A stretch of 64,000 bases of DNA from an uncultured Francisella sp. (GCA_964493995.1 CAZBQD010000002.1:20901-84900), one strand, 5' to 3'; positions 1 to 55,568 are shown, counted from the stretch's first letter. Notes: generated from the sequence alone by a model not told the origin. Program-made: numbers and translations.

Positions 1-1
1 A

Positions 2-1234
2 CGCATTGATAGCGCGCTACACGCCATTGAAGAAGCCAACGGCGCAAAGCTCACAGGCGTATTTCAGGGCATCAGCTTTAATACCGATAAGCTGGGCGAA
101 GAAAAACAGAAAAATGAAATCTTGCGCCACCTGCTAGAAGACTTTGCCTGCGATACCTTAGATCTGCGTCCGCACCGAATTGGCAAGCTCGACATTATTG
201 GTAACGCTTACGAGTTTCTGATTAAACACTTTGCCGCAACTTCGGGCAAGTCGGCAGGAGAATTTTATACCGCTCCAGAAGTGTCTGAGCTGCTTGCAAG
301 GGTGTTACAACCACAAGAAGGTGACCAGATTTGTGACCCGACTTGTGGCTCAGGCTCGTTATTGCTCAAATGTGCGAAACAGATTCAACAGCATTTTAAT
401 GGCTCGAAAAAATACGCGCTGTTTGGACAGGAAGCCATTGGTTCGACTTGGGCATTAGCGAAAATGAACATGTTCTTGCATGGCGAAGATAACCACCGCA
501 TTGAGTGGGGCGATACCATTCGCAACCCTAAGCTACAAGATAAAAACGGTGGACTATTGCATTTTGATGTGGTAACGGCTAATCCGCCTTTTTCGTTAGA
601 GAAGTGGGGGCATGAACATGCCGAACATGACCCTTGGGGACGTTTTGAGCGTGGCGTACCACCCAAAACCAAGGGTGATTATGCCTTTATTTTGCATATG
701 ATCGAAACGCTGAAACCACAAAGTGGGCGTATGGGCGTGGTTGTCCCGCATGGGGTGCTATTCCGTGGTTCGTCGGAAGGGGCGATTCGTACAAGGTTGA
801 TTGAAGAAAACCTGTTGGATGCGGTGATTGGACTGCCAGAAAAGTTGTTCTTCGGTACGGGTATTCCTGCCGCTATTTTGATTTTCAAAAAGCACAAAAC
901 AGACAATAGTGTTTTGTTTATCGATGCCAGCCGTGAGTACAAGTCGGAAAAGAATCAAAATAAACTCACCGACGACAACCTAAATAAAATCGTCAGCACC
1001 TACTTTGCTCGCCAAACGGTTGAAAAGTATGCTTACCTCGCCAGCTTAGACGAGATTAAAGATAATGACTACAACCTAAACATTCCGCGCTATGTCGATA
1101 CCTTTGAGGAAGAGGAAGAAATCGACCTGATGGCGGTGCGTAGCGAACGCATTGCCTTACAGGCAGAACTCAATGCGCTAGAAGCGCAAATGGAAGCTTA
1201 TTTGTTGGAATTGGGTTATGAGGCAAACGCATGA
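2..1234 (+). CDS. hsdM: Type I restriction-modification DNA methyltransferase subunit HsdM (5' end lies upstream of the window)
   Basis: The frame is open from nt 2. The translation has the SAM-binding motif DPTCGSGSLL and the N6-adenine catalytic motif NPPF (VVTANPPFS). hsdS and hsdR follow in the same operon. Confidence 0.9.
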   Translation, partial: RIDSALHAIEEANGAKLTGVFQGISFNTDKLGEEKQKNEILRHLLEDFACDTLDLRPHRIGKLDIIGNAYEFLIKHFAATSGKSAGEFYTAPEVSELLARVLQPQEGDQICDPTCGSGSLLLKCAKQIQQHFNGSKKYALFGQEAIGSTWALAKMNMFLHGEDNHRIEWGDTIRNPKLQDKNGGLLHFDVVTANPPFSLEKWGHEHAEHDPWGRFERGVPPKTKGDYAFILHMIETLKPQSGRMGVVVPHGVLFRGSSEGAIRTRLIEENLLDAVIGLPEKLFFGTGIPAAILIFKKHKTDNSVLFIDASREYKSEKNQNKLTDDNLNKIVSTYFARQTVEKYAYLASLDEIKDNDYNLNIPRYVDTFEEEEEIDLMAVRSERIALQAELNALEAQMEAYLLELGYEANA

Positions 1235-1977
1235 CATTCACGCAACTGGATCAACTTAAAGCACGGCTAGACGCTTATCGTCCGCTCGATGCCCATATTG
1301 TGCGAAACCTGCACGAGAATTTGGTTTTACAATGGACTTATCACAGTAATGCCATTGAAGGTAACACACTTACACTCAAAGAAACCAAGGTTGCGCTTGA
1401 GGGCATTACTATTGGTGGTAAAACACTGCGTGAGCATTTCGAGGTGATTAACCACAAAGAAGCGATTTTGATGGTTGAAGAGTTGGTGAGCCAACAAGCT
1501 CCGCTAACCGAGCGCGTGATTAAAGACTTGCATTATCTGGTGCTGAAAAACATTGACCAAGACAATGCAGGACGTTACCGACAGGTGAATGTGTTGATTT
1601 CGGGTGCAGAACATAAACCCGTCGATGCGCTTCATGTTCCTGAACAGATGACGACTTTTATCGACTGGTACGCCACACAAGCCGCTCACTTACATCCTGT
1701 TGAACGCGCGGCACGGGTGCATGGGGAGTTTGTGAAAATTCATCCGTTTGTTGATGGTAATGGACGCACTGCGCGATTATTGATGAATTTAGAATTGATG
1801 AAATCAGGTTTTCCTGCGGCAGTATTACCTGTCGAAAGCCGATTAGCCTATTACGAAGCCTTAGACACTGCGCATTGCAAAGGGGATTATGCGCCTTTTA
1901 TCGCCTTACTCTGCCAAGTCGTTGCCGATAGCTTTAAGCCTTACTGGTGGGCATTGGGGGTTGAAGATGTTGCCTGA
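1231..1977 (+). CDS. Fic family protein (class II, putative AMP-transferase) embedded in the type I R-M operon
   Basis: Canonical Fic motif HPFVDGNGRTARLL (nt 1741-1782). An N-terminal inhibitory-helix motif SNAIEG, of the form (S/T)xxxE(G/N), lies near nt 1345-1362. The start overlaps the hsdM stop as ATGA (1231-1234). Confidence 0.85.
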   Translation: MTFTQLDQLKARLDAYRPLDAHIVRNLHENLVLQWTYHSNAIEGNTLTLKETKVALEGITIGGKTLREHFEVINHKEAILMVEELVSQQAPLTERVIKDLHYLVLKNIDQDNAGRYRQVNVLISGAEHKPVDALHVPEQMTTFIDWYATQAAHLHPVERAARVHGEFVKIHPFVDGNGRTARLLMNLELMKSGFPAAVLPVESRLAYYEALDTAHCKGDYAPFIALLCQVVADSFKPYWWALGVEDVA

Positions 1978-3133
1978 GGGGTGGAAACGCATTCCAATTA
2001 AAGACGCTTGTGAATCAATCATTGATTGTGTAAATAAAACAGCTCCTGTTGTTGATTATGAAACTCCTTACAAAATGATTAGGACTACTAATGTTAGGCA
2101 CGGTCGTGTGGATGTAACTGATGTTCGATATGTTGCAAAGGAAACATACTTAGAGTGGACACGAAGAGGACTTCCTAAAAAAGGAGACATTATCTTCACT
2201 CGTGAAGCGCCTGTTGGCGAAGTAGGCGTTCTTGAAGATGATACTGGTGTTTTCCTTGGGCAAAGAACAATGATGTATCGTGCAGATAATAATAAAGCAA
2301 ATAATTATTATCTTTTTTACTCTTTATTAACTAAATTTTGCCAAAAACAAATTGAAGACTTTAGTAATGGTGGAACAGTTGCTCATATGAGAGTACCTGA
2401 TTGCGGTGAAATTTTAGTCAACTTACCCCCTCTCCCCGAACAAAAGAAAATCGCCCAAATCTTATCTACTTGGGATAAAGCCATCACCACCACCGAGCAA
2501 CTGATTGCCAATAGCCAACAGCAGAAAAAAGCCCTCATGAAACAACTGCTCACAGGCAAAAAACGCTTGCTTGATGATAACGGGGTTAGGTTTAGTGGGG
2601 AGTGGGAGCATTCAACTCTTAGAAATATACTGACGGTTTCTAAAGGTCAGCAACTTAATAAAGATACACTAGATTCAACAGGGCTTTATCCTGTAATTAA
2701 TGGCGGCATTACGCCATCAGGTTATACTGACCAGAAAAATAGGTCAGCAAATACAATTACCATTAGTGAAGGTGGTAATTCGTGTGGTTATGTAGCATTC
2801 CAGACAAAAGACTTTTGGTGTGGTGGGCATTGCTATTCTGCTACAAACTTAAAACTTAACCTACAGTTTACTTATCACTGTTTGAAATTTAATGAAAATA
2901 GAATCATGAAGTTAAGGGTTGGTTCTGGTTTGCCAAATATTCAGAAAAAAGACATTGATGGATTAGTAATTAAGTATCCTAACTGTCATATAGAACAACA
3001 AAAAATCGCTTCTGTTCTTTCCTCAGCAGATCGTGAAATTGAGGTGTTGCAAAGCAAGCTAACTGCACTCAAGCAAGAGAAAATATCCCTGATGCAACAG
3101 TTGTTGACAGGGAAACGGAGAGTTATTGTATGA
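1967..3133 (+). CDS. hsdS: Type I R-M specificity subunit HsdS
   Basis: Two variable target-recognition regions are separated by duplicated conserved helices (EQKKIAQILSTWDKAI...LMKQLLTGKKRL and EQQKIASVLSSADREI...LMQQLLTGKRRV). I chose the ATG at 1967 (MLPEGWKRIP) because the ORF-track start at 1889 lies inside fic. It overlaps the fic stop by 11 nt. Confidence 0.85.
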   Translation: MLPEGWKRIPIKDACESIIDCVNKTAPVVDYETPYKMIRTTNVRHGRVDVTDVRYVAKETYLEWTRRGLPKKGDIIFTREAPVGEVGVLEDDTGVFLGQRTMMYRADNNKANNYYLFYSLLTKFCQKQIEDFSNGGTVAHMRVPDCGEILVNLPPLPEQKKIAQILSTWDKAITTTEQLIANSQQQKKALMKQLLTGKKRLLDDNGVRFSGEWEHSTLRNILTVSKGQQLNKDTLDSTGLYPVINGGITPSGYTDQKNRSANTITISEGGNSCGYVAFQTKDFWCGGHCYSATNLKLNLQFTYHCLKFNENRIMKLRVGSGLPNIQKKDIDGLVIKYPNCHIEQQKIASVLSSADREIEVLQSKLTALKQEKISLMQQLLTGKRRVIV

Positions 3134-4494
3134 CTGTTAGCTTTAACTCAAGAGATGAGTTTCAACGCCAACCAATCGCTCAGAAGCTAATAAAACTATT
3201 GGCTAGTGATGTGAATGTTTCCCCTATGGTCATTGATGGGCCGTGGGGGTCAGGTAAAACTGAATTTACTCTTAAATTAATTGATCTTTTTCAGAATAAA
3301 GAGCCTTCCTTTAATTTAATTTACATTGATGCATTTAAGGCTGACCATGCCGATAATCCTTTAATGATGGTACTGGCAGAAATCATAAAACACCTTCCTG
3401 AAGAGCAGAAGGATTCAGTAATTGATAAAGCAATTCCTGCTATTCGCTCTCTTTCAAAAACCATAGCAAAAGCTGCAACAAGCTGGATTCTAAGGCAAGA
3501 CAGCGCAGATATTATTGAAGATTTTGAATCCGAGATTAAAGAGGCATCAGATAGCTTAATTGATTATTCTGTTGAACAGCTTCTGAAGTCTCACATTGAA
3601 GCCGATAAGAACTTAACAGCTTTGCAAAAATTACTAGAAGAAATTTCAAAAGACGAGCCAATAATACTATTTATTGATGAATTAGACCGATGCCGTCCAG
3701 ACTTCTCAGTTTCTACTCTAGAGACCATTAAGCATGTTTTCAATGTTCCAAATGTTCAATTCGTTTTGATTACAAATCAAAGCCAACTTTTGGCATCCGT
3801 TAAGCACATCTATGGTTCACAACTCGATGCAAAGCGTTATCTTGATAAGTTCCTCAGATTTTCATTTAAGTTATCCTCAACCGTTGGAACTAATAGCCAT
3901 AATCTACAACATGCGTCTGAGATTTATTTCAGCAATTTGATAGTTAAAAGCGATGTCTTAAAAGACAGTGTTTTTAGAGAGCAGGCTGGACGTGGAATTA
4001 TTGGATTTGGCATCGATTTAGTCAAAAATCATCACTTATCATTAAGAGAGGTTGAGACTTTTGTTCGCTACATTGAAATTTATCATACCCTTTCTGAAGG
4101 CTTTTCTAAGAACCTCATCTTGGGATATGGGTTACTTCGAGTAATAGGGGTTTTTATTTATTCTTTTGCAAGTGGATTTGCGAAAGAACTTGATAGAGAC
4201 ATTGTAAGTGGTTACAGCGTTAATGAATTCTTCGGAAAAACTGACCTTATTGACATTGAAAATACGAAACCGAAAAATTACATGCAAATAATTCATGCAA
4301 TGTTTGCGATGGAATTAAATATGCATTCTGATAGTTACGATAAATTCGAGAAGCCTTTACAGAATCTAAAACCAAATTGGAATGTTCATTTTGGTTCAAT
4401 GTTCAGCGGGAGTTTTCATTACTATGCTGACGAAGGTAATCTAATTCACGTAAAGTCAGCCATTCGTGAACTAATGATGCTTTCATGTAACTAG
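3130..4494 (+). CDS. KAP family P-loop NTPase
   Basis: Walker A GPWGSGKT (nt 3238-3261) and the KAP-type Walker B IILFIDELDRCRP (nt 3661-3699), with YLDKFLRFSF downstream. The start overlaps the hsdS stop as ATGA (3130-3133). No hydrophobic transmembrane insert is visible between Walker A and Walker B. Confidence 0.8.
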   Translation: MTVSFNSRDEFQRQPIAQKLIKLLASDVNVSPMVIDGPWGSGKTEFTLKLIDLFQNKEPSFNLIYIDAFKADHADNPLMMVLAEIIKHLPEEQKDSVIDKAIPAIRSLSKTIAKAATSWILRQDSADIIEDFESEIKEASDSLIDYSVEQLLKSHIEADKNLTALQKLLEEISKDEPIILFIDELDRCRPDFSVSTLETIKHVFNVPNVQFVLITNQSQLLASVKHIYGSQLDAKRYLDKFLRFSFKLSSTVGTNSHNLQHASEIYFSNLIVKSDVLKDSVFREQAGRGIIGFGIDLVKNHHLSLREVETFVRYIEIYHTLSEGFSKNLILGYGLLRVIGVFIYSFASGFAKELDRDIVSGYSVNEFFGKTDLIDIENTKPKNYMQIIHAMFAMELNMHSDSYDKFEKPLQNLKPNWNVHFGSMFSGSFHYYADEGNLIHVKSAIRELMMLSCN

Positions 4495-4504: not shown

Positions 4505-4597
4505 ATGACCCAACCCATCGCCCAATTCCACGAAGAAGTCGGTGAAAACTTGATGACAATTTGCAGCACCAACTTGGATCAATGCCATGTTAAATGA
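4505..4597 (+). pseudogene. Remnant of an hsdR 5' end (30-codon ORF, MTQPIAQFHEEV...)
   Basis: nt 4505-4544 match the true hsdR start at 6518-6557 at 38 of 40 positions. The first 12 codons are identical, then the sequences diverge and a stop occurs at 4595-4597. The remnant sits 10 nt after the KAP stop. Confidence 0.55.
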
Positions 4598-6521
4598 ATA
4601 CTCCGCCGAATCTTTGCTCGAGCAGCTCCGTGAACTGGATGAGCATCCTCGTCTTGAGGCGAAAAGCGGTTCACAAATAGGCGCATCGGTAATGCAAACC
4701 GTGTGTGCGTTCGCGAATGAGCCGAATTTAGGCGGTGGTTACTTGCTGTTGGGTGTCGAAGAACCAGATGAAGCACATGTTAAGTTTTGGATGTCTGGGT
4801 TGTCTGATACTGACAAGTTATTAAATGAATTGCAAAACAACTGCCGAGAACAGTTTGAGCAGCCGATTTCAGTTAAGGCAGAAGTAGCGACTTTAGAAGA
4901 TAAGCGCGTTATTTTAATTTATGTACCAGAGCTGGAGTCAGCTGCCAAACCTTGTACCTTTAAGGGTAAGTTTGATAGTAAAAACAAAAGAAAAACAGGG
5001 GTATGGCGTCGTGGCTTAAATGGCGATTATGAGTGTTCTCAGCAAGAGCTAACGCCGTTGTTATTAGCTAAAAATGGTGTGAGTTATGAGCAAGTTGTTC
5101 TCGATGATGCCGAAATGGACGACTTAGATGCCAGCGTGATCACCTTATACCGAAACCTTCGCGCTAAAGTATCGCCGCAGGCCGAGGAATTATTGGCCGA
5201 TGATTTAGAACTGTTACGTGCGTTGCAACTTATCAAGAAACAACATGGCGAATTCAAACCCACTATTGCGGGTCTGCTTTTATTTGGTAAGCCTTTGGCT
5301 TTACGTCGCTTATTACCAGCGGTACGCGTGGATTATATTCGAGTACATGGAACACAGTGGGTTGAAAATCCAGAACAACGGTTTGCCTATACTCAAGACT
5401 TTCGTCAACCCATTATTAGCTTGATCTCTAAACTTGAAGCCACTATTTTGGATGATATGCCGCGCTATTTTCGACTAAATGAAGGCGAAACACAGCGTTC
5501 GGATACACCTCTTCTCCCTCAAAGGGTGGTGCGTGAGGCTGTCGTCAATGCCTTGATGCACCGAGATTATTTTGTTAATCAGCCAACTTTGGTGGTTCGG
5601 TTTAGCAATCGATTAGAAATTCGTAACGCCGGTTATTCACTCAAACCAGAAAACCAGTTAGGGGAGATGGGTTCTAAGCTTCGCAATCCGATTTTGGCCT
5701 CGGTGTTGTATGATCTTAACTTTGCCGAGACCAAGGGTTCAGGAATTCGAACTATGCGACGCTTGTTGCATGAGGTTGGATTGAGTGCACCTGTGTTTGT
5801 GAATCATCAAATTGAAAATCAGTTCACATCAATCTATTTGTTGCATCAGTTGATGGGGGAAGATCAACTCACATGGCTTAAACAGTTTTCTCATTTGTGC
5901 TTGTCTGACGATGAAGCCAAGGCGTTGACCCTTGCGAAGGAAACAGGTGCAGTTGATAATGCGGCCTTAAGATCTATTACGGATCTTGATACGCTGGCGG
6001 CAAGCCGTGTTTTAACGAAGCTGACCCATCAAAAAGGGTTACTTATGCAGGGTGGTGCTGGTGCATCGACCTATTATCAGCTATCAGTGCTGTCGAATAT
6101 GCCGCTCTTTGATGTGGCAAATACGAGTGACCTAGAACCAAATACAGGTGACTTCGACTCAAATACAGGTGACTTCAACTCAAATACAGGTGAGCTAGAT
6201 GTTAATAGAGATGACCTACCAGAAGCATTGCACAATGCTATTAAAGAACTAACTCCTAAAGCAAGAAAAAACGTTTTATGGCCAATTATTATCTGGCTGT
6301 GTGCGCTAAGCCCTATGTCGGCTGACAAATTAGCACACATTATTGGCAGACAAATTAACGCATTAAAAGCAAGTCATCTAACTCAATTGAGAGAAAAAGA
6401 GGGCTACATTCAATATCTTTACCCAGAGGTCATCAATCATCCTGAACAGGCTTATATCTCAACAGAGTCTGGCAAGCAGTGGCTAAAACAGCAAACCATT
6501 TATAGTGATTCGAACTCATGA
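4587..6521 (+). CDS. AlbA_2 (Schlafen-like) domain plus HATPase_c_4 (RecG-like C-terminal) domain protein, putative nucleic-acid-binding ATPase or regulator
   Basis: The N-terminal signature EHPRLEAKSG...VCAFANEPNLGGGYLLLGVEE is typical of AlbA_2. The central REAVVNALMHRDYFVNQPTLVVRFSNRLEIRNAGY is typical of HATPase_c_4. The stop overlaps the hsdR start as ATGA (6518-6521). Confidence 0.7.
   Translation: MLNEYSAESLLEQLRELDEHPRLEAKSGSQIGASVMQTVCAFANEPNLGGGYLLLGVEEPDEAHVKFWMSGLSDTDKLLNELQNNCREQFEQPISVKAEVATLEDKRVILIYVPELESAAKPCTFKGKFDSKNKRKTGVWRRGLNGDYECSQQELTPLLLAKNGVSYEQVVLDDAEMDDLDASVITLYRNLRAKVSPQAEELLADDLELLRALQLIKKQHGEFKPTIAGLLLFGKPLALRRLLPAVRVDYIRVHGTQWVENPEQRFAYTQDFRQPIISLISKLEATILDDMPRYFRLNEGETQRSDTPLLPQRVVREAVVNALMHRDYFVNQPTLVVRFSNRLEIRNAGYSLKPENQLGEMGSKLRNPILASVLYDLNFAETKGSGIRTMRRLLHEVGLSAPVFVNHQIENQFTSIYLLHQLMGEDQLTWLKQFSHLCLSDDEAKALTLAKETGAVDNAALRSITDLDTLAASRVLTKLTHQKGLLMQGGAGASTYYQLSVLSNMPLFDVANTSDLEPNTGDFDSNTGDFNSNTGELDVNRDDLPEALHNAIKELTPKARKNVLWPIIIWLCALSPMSADKLAHIIGRQINALKASHLTQLREKEGYIQYLYPEVINHPEQAYISTESGKQWLKQQTIYSDSNS
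6120..6203 (+). repeat. In-frame 21-bp tandem repeat, 4 units, encoding NTSDLEP/NTGDFDS/NTGDFNS/NTGELDV
   Basis: Units 6141-6161 and 6162-6182 differ at one position. The flanking units are more diverged. The repeat lies in a linker of the AlbA_2 protein. Confidence 0.85.
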
Positions 6522-9500
6522 CACAACCCATCGCCCAATTCCACGAAGAAGTCAGTGCTAAACTGCCAGCCCTAACATTGCTAACCAATCTCGGTTATCA
6601 GTTTATCTCGCCACAACAAGCACTGGAAATGCGTGAGTCTTTATCATCGGTTGTGCTGGTCGATGTACTGCGCGAGGTATTGCAACAGAAGTCTATTGAT
6701 TTTCAGGGTAAGCGTTATCCCTTGTCCGATGCAGCCATTTACAACATTATTCATCAGCTCTCGCACCCTGCCATGAATGAAGGGTTACGCATTGCCAATG
6801 AAAAGCTGTATGACACCCTCACTTATGGCGTCAATATTACCGAATTTATCGAAGGTAAAAAGGTTCACGCCACCATTCAGCTCATCGACTGGGACGCACC
6901 GAGCAATAACCGCTTTCACTTCACCGAAGAGTTTGAGGTGCTCAATACGCACGGTATCGGCAAGCGTATCCCCGATATTGTCTGCTTTGTAAATGGCTTG
7001 CCTTGGGTGGTGATTGAAGCAAAGCGTCCCGATGCTTCACATACAGGCAAACCAACGGTTGAAGAAGGCATTTCGCAAAATATTCGCAACCAAAAAGTCG
7101 ATGAAATTCCGCATTTGTTTGCCTACGCCCAATTGTTATTAGCGGTGAATGGGCATGAAGGGCTATATGGAACTTGTGGCACACCTGCTAAGTTTTGGGC
7201 GAAGTGGAAAGAGGAACACATCAGCGAAGCCGACTTCTCGTCACTGAAAAACCAACGCCTAACGTCAGCACAACTAGAAACCATTTTTGCTCATCGAACG
7301 ACCAAGCAAAAACAAGATTATTTATCTTTGCTGGCGGGTGGTGAGTTATTGGTCACGGATCAGGATCGTTTGATTGTTGCCTTGCTAACCCCCGAACGAT
7401 TACTGGAAACGACACGCTTGTTTACGCTGTTCGATAAAAAGTCGGGTAAGATTGTCGCGCGTTATCAGCAGGTATTTGGCATTAAAGCCCTCGTTGAACG
7501 TATTTCAACCTTTGATGATAAAGGCGCACGTAATGGCGGAGTGATTTGGCATACCACAGGTTCGGGTAAGTCATTTACGATGGTATTTTTAGCCAAAGCG
7601 TTAATTTGGTTAGAAGCACTAGCCAAGTGCAGAGTGGTAGTGGTCACCGATAGAGTCGATTTAGAAGATCAACTGGCACGTACCTTTGCTTCAGGTGGGG
7701 CATTGTCGGATAAAGACAAAAAAGATGCCATGGCAACCACTGGCAAGCGTTTGGCAGAACAAATTGGTAAAGGTAACGAACGCATTATCTTCTCGATCAT
7801 TAATAAGTTTGGCACAGCAGTCGGTTTACCTGAGTGCTATAACGATAGCCCCGATATAATTGTACTGGTGGACGAAGGACACCGTAGCCAAAATGGTGAA
7901 AATAACATTCGGATGCAACAAGCCTTACCCAAAGCGGCTTTTGTTGCCTTTACAGGAACACCATTACTCAAAGACGACAAAACCGAGAATAAATTCGGGC
8001 AGATTCTTCATTCCTACACCATGCAACAAGCCGTTGCCGATGGTACGGTCACGCCCTTGTTGTATGAAGAGCGTATTCCCGAACTGAATACCAATGATGC
8101 AGCAATTGATGCGTGGTTTGATCGTATTTCGTCCCCCTTAAGCGATAAGCAAAAAAGTGACTTGAAGAAAAAGTTTGCGCAAAAAGGTCAGGTGTACCAA
8201 GCTGAAGGACGGATTGAACTGATCGCTTATGATATTTCTGATCACTTTCTGAACTTTAAGGCGTTAGGGTTAAAAGGGCAATTAGCCTGTGACTCTAAAG
8301 CCTCTGCTATTCGTTACAAGCAATTGCTGGATAAGATTGGTAAGGTGACATCGGTCGTCGCTATGTCGCCTCCCGATACACGCGAAGGACATGATGACAT
8401 AGACACAGAAAGCAGCGACTTGGTGCAAAACTGGTGGAAATCAAATGTCGGTTCGCAAGATGAAAAAGCTTATACCAAGAACATTATTGCCGCTTTTGCT
8501 AAAGAAGACGGTCCTGACCTTATGATTGTTGTCGATAAGTTGCTAACGGGCTTTGATGAACCTAAAAATACCGTTCTTTACATTGATAAACCGCTGAAAC
8601 AGCATAACCTGATTCAAGCCATTGCGCGTGTTAATCGCTTACACGCGCAAAAGCAATTTGGTTATTTGATTGATTACCGCGGCATTCTCAAGGAATTGGA
8701 TACCACCATTGCCGACTATCAAGATTTAGCCAAACGTACCCAAGGTGGTTTCGATATAGACGACTTAAAAGGTTTGTATCAGCAAATGGAAACGGAATAT
8801 AAGAAGCTTCCACGGTTATACAGCGAACTCTGGGCTGTATTTGCCGATGTGCGTAACAAGCAAGATGGTGCGGCATTGCGGGCGCATCTTGCACCCAAGA
8901 TGGACAATATTGATGGTCAGGTGGTCGATACAAATCTTAAAAAGCGTGATGATTTTTATGAAGCACTCACCAGCTTTACCAATGTGTTAAAAGTGGCATT
9001 GCAATCGGCGAGTTATTTTGACGATAAGAGCTTTGACAGTAAGCGGCAGGTGTATAAAGACACCTTAAAAATGATGGTGCAACTGCGTCAACAAGTACGC
9101 CAAGACGCCGAAGAAACAGTCGATTACGACCAATATGCTAACGACATTAAAGCATTACTTGATAAGCATATCGGTGGACTTAGGGTGTTAGAAGCGGAAG
9201 GGGTTTATCTGGTGGGTGATATGGGCATAAAAGTGCAACCCGACACCATGACAGATGAAGAGGCACGCAATAAGAAAGATGTCATTACAGGTCGTGTCAC
9301 GCGCATGATTGAACAGGACTTAGCTGATGATCCCTACGCTCAGGCTCATTTTTCTAAAATGTTGAAAGATGCCATTGAGCAAGCTAAAGCCATGTTCGAC
9401 GCACCTGTGAAGCAATATATGTTGTTTGCGGATTTTGAACAAAAAGTAAAAGACAGAAACGTCGAGGGCGTACCACAAGACAAGTTAGCAAAAATTGACC

Positions 9501-9787
9501 CATCAACCAAACGTCATGTACAGGCTTACTATGGCTTGTTTTTGAAGCATTACGAAGCGGGTTTACCGATTAGTGAAGAGAGCTGTTTTGACTATGCCAT
9601 TAAAATTGATGAAGTGGTACGAAAGTCGGTCGCTGAGTATTCCATCAATCCACAGGAAATTGAAAACCAAATTACCATTGGTCTGTTACCCCTATTGTTC
9701 CAAGACTTGGGTATCGAAAAGGCACAGGCGATCATTCACGATGTGATCAAAATTACCCGTTTAGGATTGGCGGGATACAGGGCATAA
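6518..9787 (+). CDS. hsdR: Type I restriction enzyme endonuclease/translocase subunit HsdR
   Basis: 1089 aa. Contains a PD-(D/E)xK-like nuclease motif PDIVCFVNGLPWVVIEAKRP, helicase motif I HTTGSGKSFT, and motif II VLVDEGHRSQ. Confidence 0.92.
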   Translation: MTQPIAQFHEEVSAKLPALTLLTNLGYQFISPQQALEMRESLSSVVLVDVLREVLQQKSIDFQGKRYPLSDAAIYNIIHQLSHPAMNEGLRIANEKLYDTLTYGVNITEFIEGKKVHATIQLIDWDAPSNNRFHFTEEFEVLNTHGIGKRIPDIVCFVNGLPWVVIEAKRPDASHTGKPTVEEGISQNIRNQKVDEIPHLFAYAQLLLAVNGHEGLYGTCGTPAKFWAKWKEEHISEADFSSLKNQRLTSAQLETIFAHRTTKQKQDYLSLLAGGELLVTDQDRLIVALLTPERLLETTRLFTLFDKKSGKIVARYQQVFGIKALVERISTFDDKGARNGGVIWHTTGSGKSFTMVFLAKALIWLEALAKCRVVVVTDRVDLEDQLARTFASGGALSDKDKKDAMATTGKRLAEQIGKGNERIIFSIINKFGTAVGLPECYNDSPDIIVLVDEGHRSQNGENNIRMQQALPKAAFVAFTGTPLLKDDKTENKFGQILHSYTMQQAVADGTVTPLLYEERIPELNTNDAAIDAWFDRISSPLSDKQKSDLKKKFAQKGQVYQAEGRIELIAYDISDHFLNFKALGLKGQLACDSKASAIRYKQLLDKIGKVTSVVAMSPPDTREGHDDIDTESSDLVQNWWKSNVGSQDEKAYTKNIIAAFAKEDGPDLMIVVDKLLTGFDEPKNTVLYIDKPLKQHNLIQAIARVNRLHAQKQFGYLIDYRGILKELDTTIADYQDLAKRTQGGFDIDDLKGLYQQMETEYKKLPRLYSELWAVFADVRNKQDGAALRAHLAPKMDNIDGQVVDTNLKKRDDFYEALTSFTNVLKVALQSASYFDDKSFDSKRQVYKDTLKMMVQLRQQVRQDAEETVDYDQYANDIKALLDKHIGGLRVLEAEGVYLVGDMGIKVQPDTMTDEEARNKKDVITGRVTRMIEQDLADDPYAQAHFSKMLKDAIEQAKAMFDAPVKQYMLFADFEQKVKDRNVEGVPQDKLAKIDPSTKRHVQAYYGLFLKHYEAGLPISEESCFDYAIKIDEVVRKSVAEYSINPQEIENQITIGLLPLLFQDLGIEKAQAIIHDVIKITRLGLAGYRA

Positions 9788-10533
9788 TGCAACAGCAATG
9801 TGAGTTATTCAGCTTCGTCTATGGTGAAGAAGCGATTCCGTATCGGGTGCTATGGTTGCCCGATCAGGCGGCTGAAAAGGTGAAGATTAAAGTCTACCCT
9901 AATGCAGAGGTGCTGGTTAATGCACCAGCACAAACCTCACCAGAACAGATTCATCAAGCTGTGATGAAACGTGCTCGGTGGATATGGCAGTCTGTCAGCA
10001 ACTTTCAGCAAAGCCGTGCTGATGTCACAGAAAAACATTATCAAAGTGGCGACATGATGTTTTACCTTGGTCGCCGCTATGTGCTCAAAGTGATGCAAAC
10101 TGATGACAAACCTAGGGTAAAATTGAACCAAGGACAGTTGCAAGTATACTTACCAGATAGCGAGCAACAGCGTCAACAGCAAGTAGAGCGTTTGGTCAAC
10201 CGATGGTATCGCCAGCAAGCCGAGCGTGTTTTTCGTGAACGTATTGAAGCGTTACTGTCACAAACTGATTGGGTAACAGAAGTGCCACCATTCAAGATCA
10301 TTTCTATGCAGAAACAATGGGGCAGTTGTTCTATTAAAGGTTGTTTAATGCTCAATCCGCATTTAATTAAAGCCGCTAAACCCTGTATCGATTATGTGAT
10401 TTTGCACGAACTATGTCACCTAGCCGAACACAATCATTCTGAGCGTTTCTGGAAGCTCCTAACCTTGGTTATGCCCAATTGGAAAGCACACAAGGCTAGG
10501 CTCGATGGGATGGCAGAGTTGTATCTTAAATAA
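9787..10533 (+). CDS. YgjP/DUF45-like (M48/WLM-type) zinc metallopeptidase
   Basis: HExxH motif in ILHELCHLAEHNHSERFW. The start overlaps the hsdR stop as TAATG (9785-9789). Confidence 0.8.
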   Translation: MQQQCELFSFVYGEEAIPYRVLWLPDQAAEKVKIKVYPNAEVLVNAPAQTSPEQIHQAVMKRARWIWQSVSNFQQSRADVTEKHYQSGDMMFYLGRRYVLKVMQTDDKPRVKLNQGQLQVYLPDSEQQRQQQVERLVNRWYRQQAERVFRERIEALLSQTDWVTEVPPFKIISMQKQWGSCSIKGCLMLNPHLIKAAKPCIDYVILHELCHLAEHNHSERFWKLLTLVMPNWKAHKARLDGMAELYLK

Positions 10534-10553: not shown

Positions 10554-11828
10554 TTAACGCGGATAGCGTTCTCCCTCTTGTGGCAATCGGTATTGATAAG
10601 GTTTGTTCGCTGATTCCGTAACGCTTTGCTTCACTTGACTCATTTGTTCTTTCAAACTCTGTTGCAATAGGCGTAATTCAGCCATTTCCTGACGCAAGCG
10701 CGTTAATTGATCCATAATCGGTTTGGTATCGACAACAGCCGTTACATTGGGGGTTGTTTTGCCTGTTTCAGCAGCGGGAGTAGGGAGTTTGGCCAAACGT
10801 GCTGCCAGTTTTTCATCCATTTGAGAAGCGACTTGTTGCCATTGCTGGTTTTGTGCTTGCGCTTGCGCAATGGCGTTTTGTTCCATTTGCTGCAACTGCT
10901 GACTCAACTGATCGACTTGCGTGAGCAATTGTTGCCAGGCTTCTGCAGAAGGGGCGGTCACTTTTGCCACAGTGGCATTATTGTTTTGCTGTACCGGCTC
11001 TGCTGGTGTAACGGCCGTCGTTGGTGCCAGAATTGGGCTGGGTGCGGGTGCCGCGTTAGGCGTCATAACCGGTGCTGAGGCGACGGTGTGATTGGCATCC
11101 GCCATCAGCGTAGGTTCAGTTGCGTTGTTTGCTTGAGTTGGCGTATCTTCTACCACTGACGCAACCACACCATCTTGTGGCGATTCGCTAGATGCAGTGG
11201 AAGGCGTCATGTCGATTTTGTTGAGCTTCATCTGCTCAATACTGGCTTGCATCTGCTCAATGGTACTGGCCAATTCATCCAGTTTGAGGGTCAGGGTTTT
11301 GCTGACAATCGTTTGATGTTCATCGACATTTTCTAAAATGGCGTTCGACATACTGACGAAGCTGGCACGACTTTGTAGCATCACGCCAATGGTCGTACCA
11401 AAGCCCGCAACCGCAATTAAGCCACTAATAAGCGTGAGAATAATGATGTTCTTCTTCGTCGCACTGACTTCTTGTACCGCTTGACGGGTGGCATGGCGCC
11501 AACCACTGGCGGCATCACTCAACTCTTTGATGCTTTCTTGTTGTTCTTTAGCCAGTTCAATATTTTTTCGCGTCGCTTCTTGTGACAGTTGCGTACCTTC
11601 GTGTAAGGCACGACTGGCTGCTTCAATGACATCTGCCCAGGTTTGCGAAGCTCGATGCGCCTCATCATGAGAAGGCTCAGGCTGCACCGCAGCGTGAACC
11701 ACCTTGGCTGAAGACAGCTCTTCCTGCGATGGCGCTTGCGACCCTTTCGCTAGGGGGGCAGATGCGAGATTCGTTTTAGGATTATCTAACAGATTATCTA
11801 AATCGTCTAAATAATTATGTGTGGACAA
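10554..11828 (-). CDS. Hypothetical membrane-anchored coiled-coil protein with an A/P/T/Q-rich low-complexity region
   Basis: 424-aa ORF with a single hydrophobic segment IIILTLISGLIAVAGFGTTIGVML. Heptad-like, Q-rich stretches flank it. I recognise no family motif. Confidence 0.5.
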   Translation of the reverse strand: MSTHNYLDDLDNLLDNPKTNLASAPLAKGSQAPSQEELSSAKVVHAAVQPEPSHDEAHRASQTWADVIEAASRALHEGTQLSQEATRKNIELAKEQQESIKELSDAASGWRHATRQAVQEVSATKKNIIILTLISGLIAVAGFGTTIGVMLQSRASFVSMSNAILENVDEHQTIVSKTLTLKLDELASTIEQMQASIEQMKLNKIDMTPSTASSESPQDGVVASVVEDTPTQANNATEPTLMADANHTVASAPVMTPNAAPAPSPILAPTTAVTPAEPVQQNNNATVAKVTAPSAEAWQQLLTQVDQLSQQLQQMEQNAIAQAQAQNQQWQQVASQMDEKLAARLAKLPTPAAETGKTTPNVTAVVDTKPIMDQLTRLRQEMAELRLLQQSLKEQMSQVKQSVTESANKPYQYRLPQEGERYPR

Positions 11829-11857: not shown

Positions 11858-12754
11858 TTAGAGACGAGACAATTCTTGACGAATTTTAGCGTTGCGCTGA
11901 CTGATGTCATCCGTTTTTTCGGCGACTTGTTGCGCTTTAATACGCCAATCGTCTTCTGTCCAGCCAAGCGTTTGCGGGGTTGCCAAGCTGGTACCCAAGG
12001 CGGCAGAAAGTTGCGCTAACTGTTTTTGTGGGCTGTTGGCTAGCTGTTCGGCCAGTTGTTGCTGTTGATTGGTTACTGTGTCTAGCAGCACATCTAATTG
12101 TGCCAGACTTTGTTGTGGACCCTTGTGTTCGCCTTCTTGGCGTAATTGCATCCAGTCTTGCAAGGCTTGAATGGCGTTCGCCACCACCGCTTGCAAATGT
12201 TCGGCAATCGGAGCTGTATCGCCAAGTGATGGTGTAATGGCATGATTCGCTGGAGTCTCACTCATCACTGGCTCTTCAACAATTTCTTCAGCCACTTCAT
12301 CAGTGATGGCTAGACCATCACATTCTTGACTATCGGCATCGCTCATATCATGGGTATCGGCTAAGTCTGCTGGTGGGAATTCTTCATCACTGGCTTGAGT
12401 GAATGTCGTTTCTAGGTCTTCATCAAAGCTCAGACCTGCCAGTTCATCCTGTTCTTCTAAGCTGTCTAAGCCTTCAAGCAGTTGCGTGGTCTCATCGTTA
12501 TCGGCCATTTCGAGCACTTCTGTGTCTGTTGTTTCGGCAAGCTCCATCGTCGATAAGGCTTCCAGTTCTTCATCGAATGTGGCCGAAGTTGGCGGTGTGT
12601 CACTGCTGCTTTCATCGAGCGTTAGGGTGTCGATCAGTTCCGTTTCATCGTGCGTTTCATCGGCAATGAGGACATCATCGACTTCGACGCCTTCAAACAT
12701 TTTTAACATTTCTTCTGTCGCTAAAGCGTCTTGATCTAGGTTTTCGTTCGACAT
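11858..12754 (-). CDS. Hypothetical highly acidic (D/E/T-rich) protein with a C-terminal coiled coil
   Basis: 298-aa ORF. The first ~160 aa are dominated by D/E/T/L. The C-terminus (QQQLAEQLANSPQKQLAQL...) looks helical. It lies directly upstream of 10554-11828 on the same strand. Confidence 0.5.
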   Translation of the reverse strand: MSNENLDQDALATEEMLKMFEGVEVDDVLIADETHDETELIDTLTLDESSSDTPPTSATFDEELEALSTMELAETTDTEVLEMADNDETTQLLEGLDSLEEQDELAGLSFDEDLETTFTQASDEEFPPADLADTHDMSDADSQECDGLAITDEVAEEIVEEPVMSETPANHAITPSLGDTAPIAEHLQAVVANAIQALQDWMQLRQEGEHKGPQQSLAQLDVLLDTVTNQQQQLAEQLANSPQKQLAQLSAALGTSLATPQTLGWTEDDWRIKAQQVAEKTDDISQRNAKIRQELSRL

Positions 12755-48307: not shown

Positions 48308-49477
48308 TTATCTTCGCACTAATAATACCAACACTTCAGCATGTTGTGTATGGGGAAACATATCAAACACCCGCGCATGAATCGGCTTGAACTGATGCAG
48401 CCGTTCCAAGTCTTGCGCTAAGCTATTCGGATTACAACTGGAATAAATGAGCTGAGTTGCCGTTGTTTCATTTAGGAATGCACATAAGGCTGCACCAATA
48501 CCGCGTCTGGGCGGATTGACGATAATACAATCTGGCGTGGCGTCGATGGCTGTGTGGGCAAAATCATCAGCTGTTAAGGCTCGAAACCGCATTCGATTTG
48601 ATAAGCCAAGTTGCTCCGCACTGCGTTGAGCACTGTTTATGGCATCGGCGTTGATTTCAATACCGGTTACATTTCCCTGCATTACTTGCGCCGCATGTAA
48701 AGCAAAGCCACCGACACCACAAAACAAGTCCCAGAGTTGATTCGGCTGACTTTCGGCAATCCAAGTTTGTGCTTGTGCGTAAAGTTGAGCGGCAACGGCT
48801 GAATTGGTTTGAAAAAAACTGCGCGGATGACAATACAAAGGTAATCCATTCAACCAATGCGTCAGAACCTTTTGTTCCGTCAACACGATTTCTTGCTCAC
48901 CTTCGACAATTGCCGCTGGCAAGGGTTGAATATTGACCGACACCACCGCTAGCTTTGGCATGGCTTTCATCAGTGCGGGCAAATGCTGTTGAATGGCGGC
49001 TATGGCTTGAGTCGATCGTAACACAAACCGACACATCAGCGCATGGGTCTGTTCATCTATGCTGACAATGACGTACTTTAACTCGCCTTGACGTTGAATC
49101 ACGTCATAAGGCATGAGCTTCACCTGTTGAATCCAGGCTCGGATTGGTTCAAAAGTGGATTGTAATTCAGCAGGATATAAAGGACAGTTAACTAAGTCAT
49201 GAGCCTGAAATTGCCGATCCAGCAGTCCCAGTATTGGTGCTTGCCAATGACCACTGACCACCATTTTGGCTTTGTTACGAAACCCCTTAATGGCACTTGG
49301 CACCAGCGGCAACCAGTTGATGTCACAAGAAAACTGAGACAAAATCGCTTCAACATCAGCCTGTTTTTGCTCACATTGTTGCAGGTAACTCAAGTCTAAT
49401 TGCGTACAGGAACGACAAATGCCTTGCTCGTAATAACCACAATTCAGTTGATTAGCCAAAAGAAAGACCACCTGCAC
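48308..49477 (-). CDS. rlmC: 23S rRNA (uracil747-C5)-methyltransferase RlmC (RumB)
   Basis: Close resemblance to E. coli RlmC throughout (GFRNKAKMVVSG, CPLYP, GELKY, FFQTN, WDLFCGVGGF, NPPRRG, FDMFPHT). The GTG at 49477 overlaps recD by 26 nt, and a TTG at 49459 is an alternative start. Confidence 0.85.
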   Translation of the reverse strand: MQVVFLLANQLNCGYYEQGICRSCTQLDLSYLQQCEQKQADVEAILSQFSCDINWLPLVPSAIKGFRNKAKMVVSGHWQAPILGLLDRQFQAHDLVNCPLYPAELQSTFEPIRAWIQQVKLMPYDVIQRQGELKYVIVSIDEQTHALMCRFVLRSTQAIAAIQQHLPALMKAMPKLAVVSVNIQPLPAAIVEGEQEIVLTEQKVLTHWLNGLPLYCHPRSFFQTNSAVAAQLYAQAQTWIAESQPNQLWDLFCGVGGFALHAAQVMQGNVTGIEINADAINSAQRSAEQLGLSNRMRFRALTADDFAHTAIDATPDCIIVNPPRRGIGAALCAFLNETTATQLIYSSCNPNSLAQDLERLHQFKPIHARVFDMFPHTQHAEVLVLLVRR

Positions 49478-51254
49478 GTTGTACGGAGCGCCCTACCGCT
49501 GTAAATAATGGCTGAGGATCGGCGCACGCCAAAATAAATTGATGCTTGGCGCGTGTGATGGCAGTGTAAATGAGTTCCTTGGTCAAAATGGGGCTATCCT
49601 GATATGGTAACAATAAACAAACTCGATTAAATTCAGAGCCTTGCGACTTATGTACGCTCATCGCATAAGCATCTTCTAGGTGAGACAAACGGGCGGGCAG
49701 AATCCAACGAATCCCCTTCTCGGTGGCAAAAGCGACACGCAAGCCTAACCTGGGATGAGACAAACATAAGCCAATATCCCCATTCATCAAATTTAGAGTG
49801 TAATCGTTGCGGGTGACCATCACCACTCGACCGGCTAGCCATGGCGCCGAATCTAGCCCCAACCACTTTGCCATACGCTGATTCATGGAGAGCAGACCCC
49901 AGCGCCCTTCTCTCACCGCGCATAATAATTGAAACTCACTTAATTGACCAAGACATTTTTTTGCCCAATCATCAGCATCCTGCTCTTTAACTGCTTCATT
50001 TACCATGACTTTTAGGCTGTGCCACTGAGTTAAAATCAGCTGTTTGAGCGCTTGCGTGTCATAGTCATGAATGGCTAACGCAACCACCGCCTCATTTGAG
50101 TTTTTCTGCCACGCAGCGAGTGATTTATAAGCGGTTCTCACCGACTTAACGGCTTGCTGATTCACCCAACCAGCCCACTGACCAATGGCGCTACTGGCAT
50201 CGAAACGGTGCGAATGACGCAGCATAATCGTTTGTTGCGCTAACCCGCTTCCCCTGAGCGAACAATAAGCCGCCGGCAAGTGTTGACCCGCATAGGCTAA
50301 CAACCACTGCTGAGTTTCTGACGAATAATGTCCCTGCTCAGCTCCATGGCACAACTGACCTAACACAGCGCCCGCATCAACCGAGGCGAGTTGATCTTTA
50401 TCGCCTAATAAAATGAGCCGTGTTGTCATGGGTAATTGTGTTAATAATTGCGCCATCAGATGCAAATCAATCATAGAAGCTTCATCGACAATAAAGCAAT
50501 CGCATTGTGTTAGCTCATCACTAGCCAGCCATTTATGCAAGGTTTGTGCCAGCGTGGGTAAATTGAGCTGAAACTCTGCGGGTAATTGACCGATTGCCTG
50601 CTGAATCGAAGAAGCCAATCGGGCGGCGGCTTTACCCGTTGGGGCAGATAAGCCAATACGTAAGGATTGCGTTGTTGTCGAGGTTTGCGCCAAACGTTGC
50701 AAGGTGGCTAACAGGCGCACGACGGTTGTGGTTTTACCCGTGCCCGGTCCACCGGTGATAATCGAAAAGGAAGCGCGTGTTGCCAAAGCGCAGGCGATAA
50801 CTTGCCAATTAGGCTCATTCGCATCAGTGCTATTATTCGGAAACAAGGCTGCTAACCAAGCGATTAATACGGTTTGATTGTCATCACGCAATGCCAAGCG
50901 CTGTTGAACATTCAGTTGAATCCTTTGTTCATCCAGCCAAGCACGTCGCATATAAAGTCGATTATCTTGCCACACTAGCGGACTCGATTCGTCATCGGCT
51001 TGCCACCAGGAACACTGATGCTGTTGTTCTGACCAAGTAGGACTTAACCGACTTTCAGACACGCCATGAGTATGATGGATGATCAGGCTGGTGATGTATT
51101 CGTCTAACAGTAAGCAAGCATGACCGGCACGGTAGGCATGACTGGTGAGTGCCGCCAGTAACCAAGCATCGGGGTGTGCGGCGGCTTGTCGCTGTAATAG
51201 ATGCGAGAAGGCCTCATCGACGGCATTTAGATGAATGTGCTTTAGCTGGGTCAT
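49452..51254 (-). CDS. recD: Exodeoxyribonuclease V alpha subunit RecD
   Basis: Walker A GGPGTGKTTTV, Walker B FIVDEASM, and the C-terminal motif VHKSQGSEF. The start overlaps the recB stop as ATGA. Confidence 0.9.
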   Translation of the reverse strand: MTQLKHIHLNAVDEAFSHLLQRQAAAHPDAWLLAALTSHAYRAGHACLLLDEYITSLIIHHTHGVSESRLSPTWSEQQHQCSWWQADDESSPLVWQDNRLYMRRAWLDEQRIQLNVQQRLALRDDNQTVLIAWLAALFPNNSTDANEPNWQVIACALATRASFSIITGGPGTGKTTTVVRLLATLQRLAQTSTTTQSLRIGLSAPTGKAAARLASSIQQAIGQLPAEFQLNLPTLAQTLHKWLASDELTQCDCFIVDEASMIDLHLMAQLLTQLPMTTRLILLGDKDQLASVDAGAVLGQLCHGAEQGHYSSETQQWLLAYAGQHLPAAYCSLRGSGLAQQTIMLRHSHRFDASSAIGQWAGWVNQQAVKSVRTAYKSLAAWQKNSNEAVVALAIHDYDTQALKQLILTQWHSLKVMVNEAVKEQDADDWAKKCLGQLSEFQLLCAVREGRWGLLSMNQRMAKWLGLDSAPWLAGRVVMVTRNDYTLNLMNGDIGLCLSHPRLGLRVAFATEKGIRWILPARLSHLEDAYAMSVHKSQGSEFNRVCLLLPYQDSPILTKELIYTAITRAKHQFILACADPQPLFTAVGRSVQRAGGLSFG

Positions 51255-54850: not shown

Positions 54851-54852
54851 AG

Positions 54853-55095
54853 TTATTCATTAACAAATTTAAAGTAATTTCTTTCTTTGCCTTCTTGCAA
54901 TAAAGAAAGAATATCACTTTCGGAAAGGCCTAAGTCCACCCCTTCAACACTTAGCGGCGATTGTTTTGGCGGCACTGGTGTGATGTAGAATGAATCCCCA
55001 TCTCGACGGCTAATGCAAATAACCCCTTCCTGTTTAGCCGTATCTAACACGAATGCTAGGTTTTGTCGTGCTTCTGTAAAGTTGTATTGTTTCAT
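54853..55095 (-). CDS. Phd/YefM-like antitoxin
   Basis: The N-terminus MKQYNFTEARQNLAFVLDTAKQEGVICISRRDGDSFYITPV fits the Phd/YefM pattern. GGAG lies 8 nt upstream of the ATG at 55095. The gene starts 1 nt after the PIN stop and ends 2 nt before the recB start. Confidence 0.65.
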   Translation of the reverse strand: MKQYNFTEARQNLAFVLDTAKQEGVICISRRDGDSFYITPVPPKQSPLSVEGVDLGLSESDILSLLQEGKERNYFKFVNE

Positions 55096-55096
55096 T

Positions 55097-55489
55097 TTAA
55101 TACTCCAATAAGGGAATGCCCATGTCACCAGCCACTTGTTTTAATGCGTTATCCAAGGTTAACAATCGGCTATTGGTTTGTTCAGCACATTGTAATAAAT
55201 AAGCGTCATATGCATAAATTCCATGACGTTGGCATATTAGTAAAGTTCGTTCCAGTTGAACATCAATAAAACGAATTGAAATGGATTTGTAAGATTCCAA
55301 TGCCATTTCTGCCTGATTTAGTGAAATGGCGCGACGCTTAAACATCGCTGAAAAAGCGTTACCAATTTCCCAATGAACCGAAAGTGGTGCGACCAAATGA
55401 GCGCCCTGAGTTGCTGTAACGAGCCTGATTTTACTGGTTTCGTTTCCAATCACGGCAATGAGAGCTGATGTATCGATAGTGACCAACAT
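55097..55489 (-). CDS. vapC: PIN domain (VapC-like) toxin
   Basis: 130 aa with PIN acidic residues in the expected contexts: IDTSALIA, HWEIGNA, AYDAYLL and TLDNAL. Confidence 0.75.
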   Translation of the reverse strand: MLVTIDTSALIAVIGNETSKIRLVTATQGAHLVAPLSVHWEIGNAFSAMFKRRAISLNQAEMALESYKSISIRFIDVQLERTLLICQRHGIYAYDAYLLQCAEQTNSRLLTLDNALKQVAGDMGIPLLEY

Positions 55490-55512
55490 GGGGCTGTTCC
55501 TTTTAAGCGCTT

Positions 55513-55545: not shown

Positions 55546-55568
55546 TGACTTAATGAGCGCGAGTCAAT

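Follow-up and report, generated by a model that had tools for sequence, protein, structure and literature searches.

The KAP P-loop nucleoside triphosphatases (NTPases) include proteins that protect bacteria against phages, and those known in this role are mechanistically obscure (PifA, QatA) or membrane-bound. PifA is responsible for the exclusion of T7 by the F plasmid. It is a founding KAP member, one of the two proteins that gave the family its name, and has no transmembrane helices (PMC13001434), and QatA was purified as a soluble, DNA-binding heptamer or octamer (PMC13279940). Tmn, a single-gene P-loop NTPase defense system, was earlier counted among the KAP proteins but has since been moved to the YobI family; it forms a membrane decamer that exports Mg2+ (PMC13001434). 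EF_KAP needs its Walker B motif and its C-terminal region for protection, further KAP NTPases whose C-terminal regions have no assigned function also protect against phage (PMC13552941), and "Reve," a single-gene KAP system of P4 hotspots, protects as well (PMC13586616). Here, we analyzed a stretch of 64,000 nucleotides from an uncultured Francisella sp. (GCA_964493995.1, CAZBQD010000002.1:20901-84900; "the window" below is this whole stretch). It carries a gene for a KAP-family NTPase that lies, within a type I restriction-modification (R-M) operon, after hsdS and before hsdR. The same slot holds prrC in the prr (EcoprrI) locus. PrrC is an anticodon nuclease in which an ABC-type ATPase is joined to a nuclease domain of the HEPN type; the R-M complex keeps it latent, and an anti-restriction peptide activates it. 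The explanation that we favor, and to which we give an even chance, is that the KAP gene is a self-contained, single-gene anti-phage module, encoding a cytoplasmic NTPase of the PDC-S20 family and residing in the hsdS-hsdR slot as cargo. We favor an autonomous module because many relatives occur in R-M-free contexts, especially as prophage, satellite, and plasmid copies.

A Catalogued KAP NTPase and Its Described Relatives

The start codon of the KAP gene shares ATGA with the stop codon of hsdS (Table 1). The 454-aa product matches Pfam KAP_NTPase (PF07693) at an E-value of 1.1e-49, with 169.7 bits against a cut-off of 20 (residues 13-320 on positions 1-291 of the 293-position profile), and both Walker motifs are present, with the lysine at K43, as had been read from the sequence in the original prediction that prompted this analysis. 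The placement of the gene in the slot of PrrC, between hsdS and hsdR, was equally well seen, with the addition that a Schlafen-like gene also intervenes before hsdR. The same prediction presented the protein as a plausible sensor or effector NTPase that is uncharacterized. The lack of characterization agrees with our literature search (see below), but the family is already catalogued. The PADLOC model PDLC04956 of PDC-S20 matches it at 3.6e-159 and 528.9 bits (residues 3-450 on profile positions 6-448 of 450), and three other PDC-S20 models match at 1.4e-60 to 1.8e-31.

PDC-S20 is one of 145 phage defense candidates (PDCs) proposed by "guilt-by-embedding," for which genes nested in type I R-M, BREX, or DISARM operons were selected and mobility and housekeeping functions were filtered out, and the PDCs entered PADLOC without testing (Payne et al. 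2024, bioRxiv 10.1101/2024.01.29.577857). A later study left the PDCs out as "unvalidated" (10.1101/2025.01.08.631726), and the name "PDC-S20" was found in no paper of the literature that we searched. The protein is a genuine member of this catalogued candidate defense family, in the very setting that defined PDC-S20. The idea of an embedded candidate defense NTPase is already published, and nothing sets this protein apart from its family. To the catalogue entry, the present analysis adds a family-wide hairpin, predicted to be soluble, that replaces the transmembrane insert; a C-terminal domain with variable regions and no known structural relative; the apparent co-divergence with one type I R-M lineage; and orthologues in E. 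coli prophages.

With 1870 homologues at E<=1e-5 in a word-indexed search, nearly all of about 445-465 aa, the family is large. An exhaustive search of representatives (50% identity clusters) returned 357 clusters at E<=1e-30, a number that rose to 10,547 at E<=1e-3. The window protein is a divergent member: its identity to the majority of embedded orthologues is 42-45%, and to one solo orthologue 68%. Among 60 homologues, G37, W39, G40, G42, K43, and D183-P190 are invariant, as are N216, the residues S304, L305, R306, E307, and E309, and P103 and K114 of the hairpin described below. N216 is a putative sensor-1 residue, and R306 may serve as an arginine finger or as sensor 2. This set matches what an active AAA+-like NTPase would be expected to keep, and we predict from it that the protein hydrolyzes NTP.

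The closest described systems resemble the protein only in part. It shares with PifA a KAP module lacking transmembrane helices (PADLOC PifA model, 2.2e-16, residues 5-249) and the condition of a single-gene defense on a mobile element. However, only positions 13-254 of the 720-position PifA profile align, which falls short of full-length similarity, and the large C-terminal part of PifA is absent, a 204-aa helical domain without known relative standing in its place. QatA, also soluble and KAP-type, matches locally over residues 102-248 (PADLOC 6.6e-13; NCBIfam 1.5e-13), but the NCBIfam score is 50.3 bits against a cut-off of 600, the profiles span 593-646 positions compared with 454 aa here, and the neighbors are hsd genes instead of qatB, qatC, or qatD. 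Tmn, which the original prediction had used as a KAP comparator, no longer serves as one given its reassignment, and its P-loop domain contains two transmembrane helices, unlike the protein analyzed here. No Tmn model was among the PADLOC matches at E<=0.01, PADLOC-DB 2.0.0 being taken by us to contain one. EF_KAP is similar as a single-gene KAP NTPase that has an uncharacterized C-terminal region and protects against phage, but it is modeled with two transmembrane helices and its C-terminal region has 322 aa (PMC13552941). "Reve" is likewise described as a single-gene KAP system that protects against phage.

Close Relatives Occur Inside and Outside R-M Operons

We examined the genomic contexts of relatives in one genome per species, at 80 loci annotated with the window's own Hsd proteins. 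The closest operon relatives are found in Alteromonadales, Vibrionales, and Psychrobacter genomes, and at least 12 other operons (different species or assemblies) have the order hsdM-hsdS-KAP-hsdR-ygjP. This order surrounds 9 of the 16 closest relatives, and one more lies beside a type I M/S pair of another kind. Of the remaining six, four have flanks of adequate length that are free of R-M genes, whereas the contigs of two were not long enough for a judgment. Look-ups of individual homologues contributed two complete embedded operons, one beside an integrase in Vibrio alginolyticus and one carried by a Tn7-like element of Aeromonas caviae, and one decayed operon that adjoins AbiE and a resolvase.

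Other PDC-S20 relatives are located in a P22-like prophage of Comamonas, on an Enterobacter plasmid, in a Geothermobacter defense island together with PDC-S63, AAA_15/21, and a DUF4011 helicase, and in a satellite-like island of Salmonella houtenae that carries an integrase and a primase-helicase. Of 5426 complete genomes of E. coli, 107 have 186/P2-like prophages with an orthologue (443 aa, WP_000102108.1, as in strains NGF1 and NC101; 42% identical to the window protein) that is flanked by cI and int and shares the strand of these two genes. Copies from prophage, island, plasmid, and other contexts match PDLC04956 at 1e-155 to 1e-171, and solo sites were also found. In a neighbor-joining tree, the embedded copies fall in the clade of the window protein, where they are interleaved with nonembedded ones, and the distant half of the tree is rarely linked to R-M. 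The link of orthologues to R-M or defense loci put forward in the original prediction is thus borne out for close relatives, which lie preferentially in type I R-M or mobile/defense contexts. Given that close relatives occur in these other genomic settings, the KAP protein does not appear to depend strictly on the R-M system. More broadly, soluble KAP NTPases form a large family that recurs at defense-linked sites.

An all-against-all BLASTP comparison of the R-M-free neighbors revealed no conserved partner gene, with the exceptions of the synteny of two Psychrobacter genomes and an AbiZ-like DUF6161 gene seen twice. The DUF6161 genes (PADLOC AbiZ, 1.2e-24) lie near KAP at L012:3613-4884, in an hsdS-hsdR slot, and at L094:5712-6968, directly upstream of a solo KAP gene. 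The two proteins are 32% identical and their loci unrelated; this may be chance or a recurrent neighbor. In the prophage of E. coli NGF1 (L097, NZ_CP016007.1; 8215-11459, 1-1025), a different "P-loop NTPase fold protein" occupies the other variable end.

Genes of the RhuM, SIR2+HerA, AbiZ-like DUF6161, Mrr_cat, Abi_2, and DUF4357 types are likewise carried between hsdS and hsdR in other species (Table 1), and the slot of this R-M lineage therefore behaves as a hotspot for defense cargo. Alternatively, the KAP gene could be a passenger without a role in defense, i.e., a mobile, often-transferred NTPase that hitch-hikes in variable slots. The sporadic distribution of the family, its many solo copies beside housekeeping genes, and the lack of a tested phenotype are all compatible with this, as is base composition: hsdS and KAP have lower GC content, overall and at third codon positions (GC3), than hsdM, hsdR, and ygjP in nine of nine operons examined (those of the window and of loci L002, L004, L006, L007, L013, L026, L090, and L091), with a GC3 in the window of 0.31 for positions 1967-4494 compared with 0.44-0.49. 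Nevertheless, the frames are intact and the catalytic residues invariant across hundreds of clusters, the gene has been kept through a long co-divergence with the operon (see below), it is repeatedly placed at prophage, satellite, and R-M sites of defense cargo, and it is homologous to PifA and QatA and similar in fold to RdrA. We consider such a passenger very unlikely.

The KAP Gene Appears to Have Diverged with Its Operon

In a pairwise comparison of 12 embedded operons, the median identity was 79% for HsdM, 72.5% for HsdR, 55% for YgjP, and 49% for the whole KAP protein, YgjP thus diverging faster than HsdR. Within KAP, residues 1-330 showed a median identity of 57% compared with 23% for residues 331 to the end. 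The distances of KAP correlated with those of HsdR (Spearman 0.79) as well as the distances of HsdM did (0.77), which suggests that KAP is an old resident that diverged with the operon in this R-M lineage, rather than a gene repeatedly swapped in. The hypervariable C terminus fits, from its pattern of divergence, a recognition surface under an arms race.

Such findings raise the alternative of a PrrC-like guard, that is, an NTPase silenced by contact with HsdM, HsdS, and HsdR, which would fire once a phage anti-restriction protein (of the Ocr, ArdA, or Stp type) puts the complex out of action or alters it, and whose variable C terminus would read the complex or its inhibitors. The slot shared with prrC points in this direction, as do the 4-nt ATGA overlaps that join the gene to hsdS in the window and to one or the other of hsdS and hsdR elsewhere. 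Moreover, 13 operons including that of the window keep the order hsdM-hsdS-KAP-hsdR-ygjP, all in a single R-M lineage (HsdR 57-88% identical), KAP tracks HsdR as closely as HsdM does, and the closest clade is embedded in 9 of the 14 assessable species loci and adjacent in 1 more. In PrrC, too, the NTPase domain precedes a C-terminal one. However, the NTPase here is KAP/AAA+-like, a conserved R-x(4-6)-H motif is missing from its C-terminal domain, and the protein yielded no match to PrrC or HEPN in Pfam or PADLOC and no fold match for its C-terminal part. Neither a nuclease nor a HEPN domain is found, and R313-x5-H319 is not conserved. In addition, close relatives (42-68% identity) that match the same PADLOC model also occur away from R-M systems, namely in prophages, on plasmids, in a satellite-like island, and at solo sites, and embedded and nonembedded members interleave in the tree. 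PrrC, by comparison, is almost exclusively R-M-embedded (Payne et al., bioRxiv 10.1101/2024.01.29.577857), whereas the PDC-S20 family is often outside R-M. Co-divergence would also follow from plain co-inheritance in one operon. On balance, we regard a guard as unlikely, although not negligibly so.

In a stronger form of the same idea, hsdM-hsdS-KAP-hsdR-ygjP would encode a five-part machine to which the KAP NTPase has long belonged, acting as its guard and not as interchangeable cargo. The C terminus may then sense anti-restriction proteins or the state of the complex, such that failed restriction triggers an NTPase-driven abortive response, and the logic of PrrC would, by analogy, be executed by a wholly different, nuclease-free protein. 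We hold this version to be quite unlikely.

Operon coupling and co-divergence with the hsd genes, together with the lack of a detectable effector domain, could also be explained by an accessory or regulatory role in the R-M system, in which the protein would not itself be a defense effector and would tune restriction as an NTP-driven assembly or disassembly factor. It might control the loading of HsdR, the alleviation of restriction after DNA damage, or the safe establishment of the operon after transfer. This appears very unlikely considering the R-M-free contexts of relatives and the fact that most type I R-M systems function without such a protein. In addition, a hypervariable C terminus is not expected of a protein that binds the conserved HsdM and HsdR, and the prophage copies, located between cI and int on their strand, would be expected to be expressed in the lysogen, arguing for a role in lysogen protection.

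The Predicted Fold Is Cytoplasmic, with a Hairpin at the Insertion Point

According to the founding KAP study, transmembrane inserts of two or four helices reportedly occur in every eukaryotic member but are restricted to some of the bacterial ones, and such an insert therefore does not define a bacterial KAP protein. Consistently, the generalization in the original prediction that classical KAP NTPases carry these inserts applies to some KAP proteins but fails for PifA, which has no transmembrane helices, and for the soluble QatA.

We assigned the topology of the window protein by hydropathy, a simple sum of apparent free energies, and an AlphaFold2 model. The residues between Walker A and Walker B, predicted to be about 140 in number and hydrophilic, amount to 137, with a maximum over 19-residue Kyte-Doolittle windows of 0.63 compared with ~1.6 for a transmembrane helix. 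The insert is likewise hydrophilic (values below 1.6) in 253 of the 255 homologues that carry both motifs, with a median length of 137 aa. The AlphaFold2 model of the full protein, built from a 60-sequence alignment, has a predicted local distance difference test (pLDDT) score of 82 and a predicted template modeling score (pTM) of 0.76. It folds the insert into a hairpin of helices 91-125 and 136-173, with pLDDT below 50 at residues 112-152. The hairpin is acidic (isoelectric point 4.5) and nearly matches the NTPase core in sequence conservation (0.63-0.64 compared with 0.69-0.78). Hydropathy, the modeled hairpin, and the homologues all agree with the original prediction that a transmembrane insert is missing, and the model suggests that a conserved soluble hairpin fills the insertion point that holds transmembrane helices in some KAP proteins.

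The sole hydrophobic stretch is C-terminal, as had also been noted at the outset, at residues 329-351. Windows above 1.6 are confined to residues 329-348, with a peak of 1.86 at 329-347 (LILGYGLLRVIGVFIYSFA), the next best value elsewhere being 0.90. A helix at this position could anchor the protein in, or recruit it to, the inner membrane and cause a permeability or ion lesion, as with PifA or Tmn. Besides the peak itself, this would account for the presence of the hydrophobic maximum at the same position in most homologues, and PifA has been reported to cause depolarization and nucleotide leakage despite having no transmembrane helices (PMC13001434). However, the modeled helix spans only 16 residues (331-346), is broken at 347, and lies in a block with pLDDT of about 93-96 inside the all-helical C-terminal domain. 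That domain (residues 251-454), when modeled alone, forms a confident bundle (pLDDT 89.3, pTM 0.88). Furthermore, a conserved Arg sits mid-helix within the stretch (consensus LLR), the family median of the C-terminal hydrophobic maximum is 1.44, with 1.6 reached in 89 of 255 homologues, and the simple apparent-free-energy sum is +1.85, a positive value meaning that insertion is not favored. Because of the short modeled helix, the mid-helix Arg, the modest hydropathy of the family, and the positive sum, the stretch is most likely, according to the model, a buried core helix and not a membrane anchor, and we consider a membrane-tethered mode of action highly improbable.

In a Foldseek search of the PDB with the whole model, RdrA of RADAR came first (8hr8, 8hra, and 8fnu; E-values of 2.6e-6 to 5e-5), with template modeling (TM) scores of about 0.43-0.50 on the query and 10-14% sequence identity, followed by DnaA, ORC/Cdc6, and clamp-loader AAA+ proteins. 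RdrA, the best solved structural match, is a defense ATPase that works as a heptameric ring. The differences are that its chains have ~800-850 residues, that the operon contains no gene for the adenosine deaminase RdrB, and that no RADAR model was matched in PADLOC. Sequence searches of the PDB, with the single protein or with a 60-sequence profile, gave only marginal matches to AAA+ Walker regions. Against a viral structure library, a giant-virus KAP protein was the best match and clamp loaders came next, which was uninformative. A HEPN-like R313-x5-H319 in the C-terminal part was considered as a nuclease motif and rejected, given that the family consensus has Q at position 319.

A Proposed Single-Gene Defense Mechanism

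Under the autonomous module that we favor, the NTPase core would operate as a nucleotide-dependent switch involving K43, D183/E184, the arginines of DRCRP, N216, and R306. The acidic hairpin (91-173) and the fast-evolving helical regions 251-300 and 357-454 would bind a phage-derived cue, and binding would promote the formation of a ring oligomer like those of RdrA and QatA. NTP turnover, or the engagement of a host or phage target, would then stop the infection, such that the KAP protein would act as a second line of defense behind restriction.

Several points weigh against this proposal. Ring assembly is deduced only from a fold match with a TM score of about 0.5 and from analogy, and residues 251-454 have no PDB fold match (best E-value 0.44, TM score <=0.26). 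Residues 300-454 are also without a Pfam match and no effector domain is recognizable, so the step by which infection is halted is guesswork. The variability of the C terminus could mean weak constraint rather than diversifying selection. The co-divergence with HsdR and the coupling to the hsd genes would equally fit a function tied to the R-M system, and many neighbors of the more distant family members are ordinary housekeeping genes. Finally, our literature search found no functional test or phage-protection phenotype for the PDC-S20 family.

With about 450 aa, a single gene, and orthologues in E. coli prophages, PDC-S20 lends itself well to experiment. Work on it could reveal by what means phage is stopped by an NTPase that lacks an effector domain, and whether R-M-embedded genes act independently or guard the restriction enzyme.

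The R-M Operon of the Window and Its Surroundings

The operon has the order hsdM-Fic-hsdS-KAP-Schlafen-like-hsdR-ygjP, with every gene on the + strand (Table 1). ATGA overlaps connect hsdM to Fic, hsdS to KAP, and the Schlafen-like gene to hsdR, and the junction of hsdR and ygjP is TAATG. Matches resembling promoters or terminators inside the operon are at or below the expectation from shuffled sequence. Owing to these overlaps and to the lack of such an excess, KAP and hsdS very probably share a transcript and are coupled in translation.

Table 1. Coordinates of the KAP gene, its protein features, the other genes of the window, and related loci
Feature	Coordinates	Strand	Evidence or remarks
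KAP-family P-loop NTPase gene, PDC-S20 member	3130..4494	+	Intact open reading frame (ORF), 454 aa; Pfam KAP_NTPase; PADLOC PDLC04956
Walker A GPWGSGKT, residues 37-44, lysine K43	3238..3261	+	
Hydrophilic helical-hairpin insert (predicted), residues 91-173, between Walker A and B	3400..3648	+	AlphaFold2, hydropathy
Walker B and KAP signature IDELDRCRP, residues 182-190	3673..3699	+	
N216, invariant Asn ending strand 209-215, sensor-1-like position	3775..3777	+	Alignment and AlphaFold2
C-terminal all-helical domain (predicted), residues 251-454, family-specific; variable parts 251-300 and 357-454	3880..4491	+	AlphaFold2
Invariant SLRE-E motif (S304-E309), start of helix 305-322	4039..4056	+	Alignment and AlphaFold2
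Hydrophobic stretch LILGYGLLRVIGVFIYSFASGFA, residues 329-351	4114..4182	+	Modeled as buried 16-residue helix
hsdM, type I methyltransferase, truncated by window start	1..1234	+	N6_Mtase 9.3e-108
Fic-domain gene between hsdM and hsdS	1231..1977	+	Pfam Fic 2e-24
hsdS, specificity subunit	1967..3133	+	Methylase_S 1e-45, two stretches
Schlafen/AlbA_2 and HATPase_c_4 protein, 644 aa, between KAP and hsdR	4587..6521	+	
hsdR, type I restriction subunit	6518..9787	+	HSDR_N, SWI2_SNF2, T1R_D3-like
YgjP-like metallopeptidase, last operon gene	9787..10533	+	YgjP-like 4.2e-57
recD, recB, recC (within 49452-59120)	49452-51254, 51251-54850, 55569-59120	-	recC-recB gap ~0.7 kb
Slot cargo beside KAP	L007:3291-6817; L005:9366-10421; L013:10687-11634		
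Slot cargo beside KAP, further loci	L016:9510-10448; L012:6846-7838; L090:6101-6976		
Methylase_S half-domain ORF	L002:4587-5174; L004:4707-5306; L006:1208-1897		
Methylase_S half-domain ORF	L026:4666-5238; L013:4568-5197; L091:3526-4113		

The hsdM orthologues have 505-528 aa. The longest ORF of hsdS begins at 1889, and the public gene call (388 aa, L081) corresponds to a start at 1967. The Fic gene also matches the PADLOC models PDC-S04 (2.8e-40) and SoFic (1.1e-33). The Schlafen-like protein matches Pfam SLFN_AlbA_2 (7e-14) and HATPase_c_4 (3.6e-14) as well as the Schlafen-containing part of a PADLOC pAgo model (2.2e-24), and its gene is missing from most orthologous operons; prokaryotic Schlafen proteins were recently reported as a defense class (PMC13552941). 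For annotation, the window is hence best described as containing a type I R-M operon in which three candidate defense genes (Fic, KAP, and Schlafen-like) are embedded.

Scans of the window for tRNA genes and Rfam families found nothing. Its remainder is ordinary chromosome, coding for RecBCD, AcrB, and GGDEF/EAL proteins, the recBCD genes marking the window as chromosomal. Directly downstream of the operon, two ORFs on the - strand (10554-11828 and 11858-12754) encode low-complexity proteins, one Q/A-rich and one D/E-rich, for which the public gene calls (L081) list no Pfam family.

The YgjP-like gene directly follows hsdR in every operon of the lineage whose contig reaches past hsdR, a check that also covers loci L002, L004-L007, L012, L013, L016, L026, L090, and L091. 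Just upstream of hsdM, in a region whose equivalent here lies beyond the window, related operons conserve an ORF of ~195 aa that encodes a single Methylase_S half-domain (Table 1).

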